A stretch of DNA of 51,100 bases from Ionaspis alba. Its lineage: Eukaryota. This document shows positions 8,344 to 32,757 of the stretch, one piece after another (within the stretch, counting starts at the first letter, position 1; each line of letters opens with the position of its first letter). The notes under the pieces were generated by a model that was not told where the DNA came from, did not search any database, and saw only the letters and a program-made list of their open reading frames with translations. The DNA lies in the NCBI GenBank assembly GCA_964255285.1, contig CAXUUL010000003.1, forward strand, positions 62,001 to 113,100, given 5' to 3'. The position numbers were made by a program, and so were the translations under genes.

Positions 8344-10642
8344 TCAAGCCCCTGGAGGTGGCGGTGGGGGAGGCTGGTCGCTCGGAGGCTATGAAAGAAG
8401 TGAGCACGTGTCAGGATTATGGGTGTAGAGGTAGAGGTGGCTTACCGGTGGAGGAGGAGCATCACCTGGGGGTGGGGGAGGTGGAGGACTTCCGGCAGGC
8501 CCATTGCCACTGTAGTGCTGGAACAGAGCTCCGAGACCAGGGGGAGCGCCAAGACCACCAGCGCCTCCACCGAGTCCTGGAGGAGCACCCATACCTTGCG
8601 GAGCAGGGTACCCGCCAGCGGAATCGCCATAACCACCAGGATATCCACCATACCCACCGTAGCCTGGTTGACCGCCGGGAGGAGGTGGTGGTGGAGCTTG
8701 TTGATGCCATGGAGCAGCACCACCCGGAGGTCCTGGTGGAGGAGCACCGTAACCGCTGTTTGCTTGATACCCATAGCTATCTCCACCACGAACACCTGCT
8801 GCCCAGGGAGGAGCCGAACCACTGTCATGCCCGCCGTAATCGTCACGTCGTCCACGATCATCCGCCCCCCGTTGCCATGGTGCTGCTGCGCCAGTGGGTC
8901 CACGCTGCCATGGTTTGAGATCACGGTCACCTTCCCCATAGCCATCGGCGCTCCCATTCTGATACCCTCCAGGTCCGGCTTCGATACGTTGTGGCGCTTG
9001 GCCGTTGGCGGGTGCGCCTCCGGAGAGTTCTTGCATAAGTTGCTAGGGAAACTAGTTAGGACAAATTATTAGCTGGGAGGATGAGACTAACCTCGTATTC
9101 TCGGTCGACAGCATCACCTCCGCCGATACGTCCTGGTGCAGGGCGGCCTGGTACTCCTCCAGGAGCATCGTTGCGCCAATTGGCTCCACGTTGTCGATCG
9201 GGGCAGTCCCTTGCCATATGACCAGCATTCCCGCAAACTCGACAGATGATATTCGCGGTAAAGTTGCGCTGCTCTGGACAGTCATATTTGCGATGACCGA
9301 TTTGACCACCTGTAGTAGTTAGTAGCTGGATAGAATTACAGCTTCTCAGTCTACTTACAGTTCTGACACGCCTGATTTTCGTCATCACGCAGAGTTCCAT
9401 TGAGAGCTGCCAACTCGCGGAGTTGATTACGTTTGAGCTCGTTTTGTCCTTCAGGAATAGAAGCAGCCTATGGCAAGTAAGCTTCGTTTTGTCTTGAGAG
9501 TAACTGGGACCATAAACGTACCGTCTCAATGACATTGTGAATGAGTTTCTTTGCCTTGTTGACCTTTTCCTCCGTGTCGGCCATGATCAAACAATGAAGA
9601 TCTTCCTCCTGGTTGCTGGTATGAGCAGCGTCAGAACGACCTTTTCCTTCCTTCACAGAACCCTTCCCACGGATGGCGATCTTCGCTTGTGATTCTGTTT
9701 CCATCTTTTTCAAAGTATTGCCTCGGGGCCCGATAAGTAGGCCAACTTTAGTACAGAAAAGCAAGCTAAGTGTTAGTCTCTGTAGATCAATAGTATAGCA
9801 ACGTTCGTGTAATGATTTTGGAGGTTAGCGGCAAGACATACTACATCCTCCGAAGGATGCCGCACGCATCACCAAATAGGAAAATGCAAGAAATCGAGAA
9901 ACAAGGTTAGGAGTTAGAGGGTTAGTTATCATACTGAAGTTAATCTCTGGATAGTCATTGACAGGTACGTAGACCTTTTCCTGTGTCTTAGTAGGACGTC
10001 TGTAATCCGAAGGCGGGTGATAGTTAGGGATAATCTTCATGGCCTTTTCAATCTGCTTGTGACGTTCATCTTCAAGACGCTTGCGATAACGGTACTCCCG
10101 AGTGTTTACACGACGACCAAAGTTGTCATATTGTGGTGGTGGAGATGGGGACCTGAGTGTGTTTAGCTCGCTAGAATTGTACGCGCAGAAGTGCGAGCTT
10201 ACCTGTCACCATCGGCCGGAACGACGTCGTTGATACGAAGCTTCTCGCTGATTTCCTGGATACGAAGATGAAGTGTATAAGCTTCTAGCTGCTCGTTGGT
10301 CATGTTGGCCTTGATCATGGTAGGCAGGCCCATCAAGCCAGCGGCCTTGTTCTCTGCTGCATCACCCCATCGATTCCTCTTCTTACGCCTCCTCTCACCT
10401 GCCTCGACAGGCTCCGCTAGCATATCATCAGCAAGACATTAAGGGTGGAGATAGAGGATAATCTCACGTCGCTCTGGACTACGTCCACGTTTGTAGCCAT
10501 CAGAAGCGCCACCTGTCGAAGAGTAGGACGGGTTATAGCCACCATCGTCAACTGGAGGAGTTGAATCGCCCCCACCGAACTTACGACGATTTCCCAAAGG
10601 TATGTTGTTCGAGCCAGTGATGCCTTGATTACGCCAAGCCAT
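8344..10642 (-). CDS. MSL5: Branchpoint-bridging protein / splicing factor 1 (KH-QUA2, two CCHC zinc knuckles, Pro-rich tail)
   Basis: RRRKKRNRW (ULM), [50 protein letters not shown], CxxC...[21 protein letters not shown] and a Pro-rich C-terminus; multiple canonical introns. Confidence 0.97.
9746..9934 (-). promoter_or_regulatory. KH-domain intron of BBP with five CTAAC motifs, an alternative in-frame 5' splice site and a stem-loop
   Basis: Minus strand reads GTATGAtaACTAACccTCTAACtCCTAAC...; second donor GTATGT at 9841; GCTAAC at 9824-9829; ACTAAC at 9772-9777; acceptor AAG at 9746. Confidence 0.7.
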
Positions 10643-32257: not shown

Positions 32258-32757
32258 GAGGATGTTAGTGAAGCATAGGGTCTACATAGCTACCACACCG
32301 CATAGCGAAGGTGTTCGAAGGTGTTTATTGTTTTCAGCGGTCTGTATTCGAATGTTGCTTGGGTAAAAATAGACATCATAAGACAGCAATTCAGTTCCAT
32401 GCTTCACTTCAGCAACTCCACTCCATCATACTACGTATTGGGCTGCTCGTACCTGAAGGATTCACTGCAAGAGTCGTGTTGGGTTTGATTGAATGACACA
32501 GCTAGTGAGTCAGATGTAGTGAATGCGGCAAAACGGCGCTAGTGGAGAGAGCATATCTAGCTCGATTCCTCCGTCTCTCCTACAGATTTTTTCTTCTCCT
32601 TGTCAGCACGCAAGTCTTCCACCTAACCCCCTAACTTTGATCATCCATCACTAACTCGACCTCAGACCTCTTCACACTAAGCTGAAGTATCTGCAAACAA
32701 AACTTCTTCATCGACATCACAAACACATAATCCATCTCCCAACAACAATCGTCCACC

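Follow-up and report, generated by a model that had tools for sequence, protein, structure and literature searches.

A conserved array of CUAAC motifs beside the donor of a retained intron in a fungal SF1/BBP gene, and its possible role in self-regulation

We analysed a stretch of 51,100 nucleotides (nt) from Ionaspis alba (GenBank assembly GCA_964255285.1, contig CAXUUL010000003.1, positions 62,001 to 113,100; this whole stretch is called the window below), which carries a gene for the branch-point binding protein SF1/BBP on its minus strand. The third intron of this gene (9746..9934, minus strand; 189 nt, phase 1, GT..AG) opens with three copies of CUAAC placed directly behind the 5' splice site, and CUAAC is described as the core site of BBP (PMC4338336, PMC3378887). 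Comparison with orthologous introns revealed strong conservation of this array, which is very probably a selected, functional part of a regulated intron. As to its role, we consider it on balance probable that the array acts as a decoy branch-site module, by which excess BBP would block productive splicing of its own message.

The CUAAC array and its conservation among orthologues

Intron 3 splits the start of the KH domain (..EINF / IGLLIGPRG..) and begins with GUAUGA-ua-ACUAAC-cc-UCUAAC-u-CCUAAC. The three early motifs lie on the minus strand at 9921..9926 (ACUAAC), 9913..9918 (UCUAAC) and 9906..9911 (CCUAAC), with their branch-type adenosines at +13, +21 and +28 from the donor. Altogether, the intron holds five CTAAC copies (9921-9925, 9913-9917, 9906-9910, 9824-9828 and 9772-9776), while the gene's other six introns measure 49-57 nt and contain none or one apiece. 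If the intron is retained, the first in-frame stop is the TAA at 9825-9827, inside the fourth CUAAC copy. The preliminary description of this DNA, made from its letters, had reported this opening, the five copies and the stop, all of which we could confirm. It had further claimed that the early motifs lie too close to the donor for branch points, and this agrees with the architecture of the gene, in whose other introns the adenosine of the last branch-like motif lies at a median of 40 nt from the donor (5th percentile 36).

Over its full length, the window shows no enrichment of CTAAC (59 observed vs 66.8 +/- 7.8 expected). Of 300 first-order Markov simulations of the window, 4 contained three CTAAC starts within 16 nt, and neither five copies nor three among the first 30 nt came up in 20,000 shuffles of intron 3. 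The window has another cluster of three CTAAC at 32623-32655 on the plus strand, just 5' of a CAG and about 95 nt before the EF1-alpha start codon. It resembles the 3' end of a tef1 5' untranslated region (UTR) intron with redundant branch sites, and it lies near an acceptor, the usual place for such motifs.

For the comparison, orthologues were collected by scanning metagenome contigs with the exon 4 peptide, and the 80 closest of 411 relatives were taken (L001-L080). Together with the window, these contigs yielded 60 distinct orthologous introns (59 from metagenome contigs), which form 14 clusters when grouped at 85% exon identity. Intron 3 occurs in 75 of the 77 loci carrying both flanking exons and is missing in two. 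Its median length is 188 nt, about 3.5 times the 52-56 nt of the gene's other introns, and its mean content of CTAAC is 4.5 copies, compared with 0.35-0.6 in the five other comparable introns of the gene. Introns 4 and 5 are present or absent depending on lineage (gaps of 0-3 nt), and intron 1 is missing in a few loci; against this turnover, intron 3 is evolutionarily stable.

A CTAAC starts at +6 to +10 in 56 of the 60 distinct introns, and the start lies at +9 or +10 in 55 of the 59 introns having an early motif; among 157 other introns of the gene, a single one has a CTAAC starting in its first ~20 nt. At least two copies lie within the first 30 nt in 53 introns, with a spacing of 8 nt from the first to the second early motif in 32 of these 53. 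Alignment columns over intron positions 1-22, which comprise the first two motifs, are 80-100% conserved, with 90-100% for the columns of the first motif, while the four-fold sites of exons 3 and 4 are near saturation at a mean pairwise identity of 0.42. The array is present in 12 of the 14 sequence clusters. The orthologue alignment that the preliminary description had proposed thus shows strong conservation of the array, and of the three motifs that it had described the first two are well conserved, whereas the third is less fixed: its position and presence vary among lineages, and at least three copies within the first 45 nt are found in 23 of 60 introns. The extra copies shift position (+24, +28, +37 to +40) among lineages while the count is maintained, and this turnover points to selection acting on the motif rather than on the exact sequence.

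Pairs of the form CTAAC-N1-6-CTAAC are almost confined to this intron, which holds 89 of the 91 occurrences on both strands of a background of 391,478 nt, consisting of the window plus locus flanks and thus largely of syntenic sequence. That the array is a chance or neutral trait of a long intron is barely credible: CTAAC is common in fungal introns and the window has its second cluster at the putative tef1 5'UTR intron, but conservation far above that of synonymous sites, the shuffling result and the concentration of pairs in this intron stand against it. Chance is excluded for practical purposes, and the conservation among orthologues is the decisive evidence.

Further conserved parts of intron 3 and its retention in transcripts

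The array is accompanied by weak splice sites, a pyrimidine tract, a mid-intron motif behind a hairpin and an ACUAA at the acceptor, which the preliminary description had overlooked. The donor GUAUGA (9929..9934, minus) is non-consensus at +6, where the 58 distinct orthologues divide into 49 with A, 5 with G, 3 with C and 1 with U; of 150 introns elsewhere in the gene, 98 have U and 7 a purine there. The weak donor and the array go together in that L075, the one orthologue that has no array, carries a consensus donor. At the acceptor, position -3 is A in 43 of 58 orthologues of intron 3 vs 6 of 150 other introns. In the window, the intron ends in UACUAAAG (9746..9753, minus), in which a branch-like ACUAA abuts the weak AAG, and among the 60 introns the endings TACTAAAG, ACTAACAG and CACTAAAG occur in 21, 15 and 2, respectively.

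The array is followed by a pyrimidine-rich tract (9871..9905, minus). Across orthologues, pyrimidines make up 75% of the 35 nt behind the last early motif, vs 59% in the rest of intron 3 and 55% in other introns, and the first AG follows at a median of 42 nt (8-107 nt) past the array at a position that is not conserved. Array and tract together look like a branch-site-plus-polypyrimidine unit without a nearby AG.

Further downstream, the mid-intron motif GCUAAC (9824..9829, minus), which holds the in-frame UAA described above, has a CTAAC counterpart in 56 of 60 introns. In one clade (L003:229-243, L007, L014, L054, L060) it reads CTAACCCTAACCC, which corresponds to two telomere C-strand units. 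Folding of the window sequence predicts a hairpin ending at this motif (9829..9874, minus). In the clade alignments, compensatory changes affect 3 of 20 and 4 of 12 pairs. For one clade, pairing holds in 92.9% of cells, compared with 16-63% when the structure is slid along the alignment, and the covariation was matched by 6 of 500 shuffles. We consider the covariation support for the predicted hairpin modest. The fold of the whole intron is no more stable than that of shuffles (z 0.14), and neither a known RNA family nor a snoRNA was found, with no Rfam 15 match at E <= 1 for window positions 9600-10100. In one clade (e.g. L010, L040, L004, L005), complements of the donor (..TCATAC) occur after the mid motif or before the distal site and could hide the donor; over the 60 introns, the signal for such a helix is weak (mean z -0.59; 10 of 60 at the 5% level).

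The last copy, the distal ACUAACAC (9770..9777, minus), is likely the working branch site, with the early copies being the poorer ones, as judged from their flanks. A distal CTAAC is present in 56 of 60 introns, always as ACUAAC and mostly as ACUAACAC, with A at -1 in 100%, A at +1 in 86% and C at +2 in 80%. In roughly half of the early copies -1 is G or U, and +1 is C; a C follows the early and mid motifs in 73-90%. Given the sequence of U2 small nuclear RNA (snRNA), the extra AC of the distal site would lengthen pairing with U2. The distal branch adenosine is followed after 8 nt by a conserved YAG (UUAG at 9766..9769, minus, in conserved columns) 5' of the productive acceptor, mostly TTAG in orthologues; its use as acceptor would add about 20 nt and put the frame out of register. 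A TTGATCA block was not enriched in the window as an intron element (13 vs 11.2 expected).

Retention of intron 3, as claimed in the preliminary description, is seen in four of five transcript-like contigs, which keep this intron while the other introns that they span are gone; one contig is fully spliced. In L003, introns 1 and 2 are removed and intron 3 is kept, and the contig is 100% identical over 323 nt to the genomic contig L007, which has all these introns. The fully spliced contig, L043, lacks every intron that it spans, including intron 3, and is 100% identical to the genomic L052, which carries these introns. Three further contigs, L028, L029 and L066, are of mRNA size (1.9-2.3 kb) with untranslated-region ends and contain intron 3 in the absence of the other introns; their origin from transcripts is very likely. 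A 162-nt contig from an RNA library, with two differences from the window, spans the unspliced exon 3/intron 3 junction (9782-9943), where carry-over of DNA is possible. A run search brought up no RNA-seq of this species; no splice joints for the window were found in the three runs matched, among them one RNA library containing 0.05 of the sampled words, in which gene parts without cover carry no information. Retention is non-productive in all 60 introns, by an in-frame stop in 59 and a frameshift in one. The alternative donor that had been suggested next to retention did not stand: the internal GUAUGU (9836..9841, minus) is not conserved, and any internal GTRNGT is present in 5 of 60 introns. 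These five lie in non-homologous places, and a spliceosomal twin intron (stwintron) was rejected.

It should be noted that L003 (L003:1-1068) is circularly permuted, running from part of exon 3 through the retained intron 3, exon 4 and 3-4 letters of intron 4 to a point midway in exon 1, followed by exons 2 and 3, and that it carries a 120-nt terminal repeat. Since its join falls off the exon boundaries, an artefact of assembly or reverse transcription is more likely than a circular RNA.

A model of self-regulation and its alternatives

Intron 3 has the marks of regulated unproductive splicing, because its weak sites and extra length are conserved, it is retained in natural RNA and its retention brings in a premature stop. 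Two features by which unproductive splicing is judged are found here, namely the protein's own motif in conserved non-coding pre-mRNA (56 of 60 introns) and the non-productive isoform as RNA (four contigs). Self-regulation is the most economical reading, since the conserved elements are multiplied core sites of BBP and lie at both splice sites.

We propose a model in which intron 3 would be a conserved, deliberately inefficient intron that senses the level of BBP. Its weak donor GUAYGA, two to four CUAAC copies and the pyrimidine tract would represent a 3' splice-site half placed where it could not be used, with branch-type adenosines 13-28 nt from the donor, while the presumed working distal ACUAACAC lies about 25 nt from the weak AAG acceptor. 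When BBP is scarce, mainly the distal site, as the best one, would be occupied and the intron would be removed. When BBP is in excess, the weaker early sites and the ACUAA at the acceptor would be filled as well, probably together with its partner Mud2/U2AF, and the filled early sites would either clash with the U1 small nuclear ribonucleoprotein (snRNP), as the preliminary description had suggested, or lock a U1-BBP bridge that is too short for catalysis. The intron would then be kept and the KH domain interrupted by the stop, so that no functional BBP would be made and a negative feedback would result. The retained RNA might undergo decay or stay in the nucleus; for yeast, a link of BBP and Mud2 to nuclear pre-mRNA retention has been described (PMC2377449). 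What we infer in this model is that BBP is what binds, which way the loop runs, which step exactly is blocked and what becomes of the retained RNA. In a more far-reaching form, which we put forward tentatively, as somewhat less probable than the decoy module as such, the intron would sense concentration for the earliest step in assembling the spliceosome and would have been kept across a wide range of filamentous ascomycetes, in which the decoy half makes surplus BBP-Mud2/U2AF build a dead-end bridge to U1. As a bolder extension, the motif-rich intron, retained or excised, could also serve in trans as a sponge for BBP.

Several points weigh against this interpretation. The run of C at the 3' side of the early motifs (CUAACC) could suit another RNA-binding protein, and the third of these motifs is the least conserved. 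Two lineages are without the device: in L064 (L064:2782-3222; a genomic contig of 36 kb) the site is not interrupted by an intron, and introns 1 and 2 are longer and free of arrays, and L075 (L075:1576-1672), the sole orthologue without an array, has a 97-nt intron with no CTAAC and the consensus donor GTAAGT. The spread of the device was judged within the 80 closest of the 411 relatives. As to retention, the nearest genomic counterparts of L028, L029 and L066 are 85-90% identical, so that the other introns could conceivably have been lost in these lineages, and assembled contigs cannot give isoform ratios. Finally, retention of a long intron with weak sites could reflect passive slowness rather than regulation.

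The early CUAAC copies could instead enhance splicing by recruiting BBP, and through it U1-bridging factors, to a weak donor, in which case BBP level would have either a positive link or none. Such help might be needed by an intron of this length with weak splice sites, and BBP-Mud2 is described as associating with U1 snRNP in yeast (PMC3378887). We nevertheless regard an enhancer as unlikely, as it would leave unexplained why the weakness of the splice sites is conserved, why, within 391 kb, the device is confined to the BBP gene, and why intron 3 alone is retained in the transcript-like contigs; positive feedback on an essential factor would also be an unusual design. Still less probable is that the early motifs are genuine distant branch points, used with an internal AG or with the donor of the previous intron to yield an alternative non-productive form. 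The pyrimidine tract and the AG-free stretch (median 42 nt) behind the array would fit such a use, the adenosine of the third motif at +28 is near the shortest donor-branch distances inferred for the other introns, and branch points 25-41 nt from the donor are described for OGDH (PMC7969005). Yet the first AG is not fixed (8-107 nt), the strong canonical branch site near the acceptor is conserved, the transcripts observed are either fully retained or normally spliced, and the gene has no duplicated exon pair.

It is also improbable, in our view, that the element is read by a factor other than BBP, be it a protein of the C-rich-strand or telomere-repeat type acting on RNA or DNA, or U2 snRNA by pairing alone. 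CTAACCC resembles the telomere C-strand repeat, the C following the early and mid motifs in 73-90% is in line with such a reader, and so are the two telomere-like units in the mid motif of one clade (L003). The invariant core is, on the other hand, exactly CUAAC with variable flanks, it keeps a constant register to the donor (+9/+10 in 55 of 59), and its location in the very gene that encodes a reader of CUAAC would be a coincidence. Self-regulation by BBP, with the reservations given above, is the reading that we compare with known systems in the following.

In yeast, the RPL30 protein binds its own pre-mRNA beside the 5' splice site, thereby autoregulating its expression. As is proposed here for BBP, a donor-proximal site lets the excess protein stall spliceosome assembly on its own transcript; BBP differs in being a core factor of the early spliceosome, and its site would be a multiplied general splicing signal and not a special RNA structure. 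For the STAR protein Quaking, autogenous regulation through ACUAA elements has reportedly been found by Fagg et al. in 2017 (cited in PMC13004596). There, too, a KH-QUA2 protein reading ACUAA acts on its own transcript, although protein and lineage are different. The fungal SR-protein gene srp2 is described as being subject to retention of an unusually long intron that is sensitive to nonsense-mediated decay (PMC4379411). It resembles the BBP gene as a splicing factor gene with one unusually long retained intron with in-frame stops that persists in fungi with short introns. The sequence of the retained srp2 intron is given there as not notably conserved among Aspergillus species (PMC4379411), whereas the BBP intron has sharply conserved blocks of the protein's own motif; by its premature stop, the retained BBP form is a candidate for nonsense-mediated decay. 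In animal genes of the OGDH/tropomyosin type, distant branch-point clusters near the 5' splice site are reported to control mutually exclusive exons (PMC7969005). The BBP intron shares with OGDH, as described, several branch motifs that lie closer to the donor than the proposed steric limit, with a long pyrimidine tract behind them. The OGDH branch points are described as the ones in use, with no AG before the acceptor, and as enforcing mutually exclusive exons, in contrast to the BBP intron, which has a conserved canonical branch site close to its acceptor and AGs in between and lacks an exon pair.

What is new with respect to known autoregulation of splicing factors is the placement of conserved copies of the protein's own site against the donor. 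BBP/SF1 starts the recognition of the branch site, and an account of how its level is set was not found in our literature search. Nor did the full texts within reach of this search, to which most subscription journals do not belong, contain a report that a fungal BBP/SF1 gene regulates itself or that the intron 3 device exists. If the model is correct, a core factor of the early spliceosome would join the self-limiting splicing regulators, a general splicing signal would work as a brake once multiplied and misplaced, and the feedback would set the capacity of the cell for branch-site recognition. The system is experimentally convenient, with a short intron, genetically tractable fungi and a clear read-out, and it would allow the minimum distance between branch site and donor as well as the competition of BBP, U1 and U2 to be tested on one RNA. 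For annotation, it explains why intron 3 tends to look unspliced in transcript assemblies.

The host gene and minor observations

The coding region of the host gene (SF1/BBP, Msl5/Bpb1-type; 8344..10642, minus strand) comprises 8 exons and 7 introns in a model built from the sequence, with the ATG at 10642 and the stop at 8344-8346. All seven introns are GT..AG and lie, from high to low coordinate, at 10467-10417, 10202-10153, 9934-9746, 9521-9468, 9358-9310, 9091-9043 and 8445-8389. Pfam domains were called exon by exon and not on the spliced protein as one piece. SF1-HH (PF16275) matches exon 2 (E 1e-12) and exon 3 (9935..10152, minus; E 1.3e-23), which holds the end of this domain and the KH start; KH-I_KHDC4-BBP (PF22675) matches exon 4 (9522..9745, minus; E 3.1e-20), which holds the KH core with the GPRG loop; and zf-CCHC (PF00098) matches exon 6 (E 5.2e-11). 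The QUA2 region was assigned to exon 5 by eye, and a proline-rich C-terminus is visible in the translation. The nearest solved structures to exon 4 in the PDB are KH-QUA2 of yeast Msl5 (4WAL/4WAN, E 6e-21), described as bound to branchpoint RNA (PMC4338336), and human SF1 (1K1G). Because of these domains, and with Msl5/SF1 structures being nearest to exon 4, the gene is, as judged from its sequence, that of the branch-point binding protein SF1/BBP.

The style of the introns, together with the label given in the preliminary description, suggests filamentous ascomycetes as the host group. No stray fungal copies were found in the prokaryote genome collection. The seventh intron (57 nt, 8389-8445, minus) lies in the proline-rich tail, where the unspliced reading frame ends early, and its spliced reading is backed by the transcript-like contig L028.

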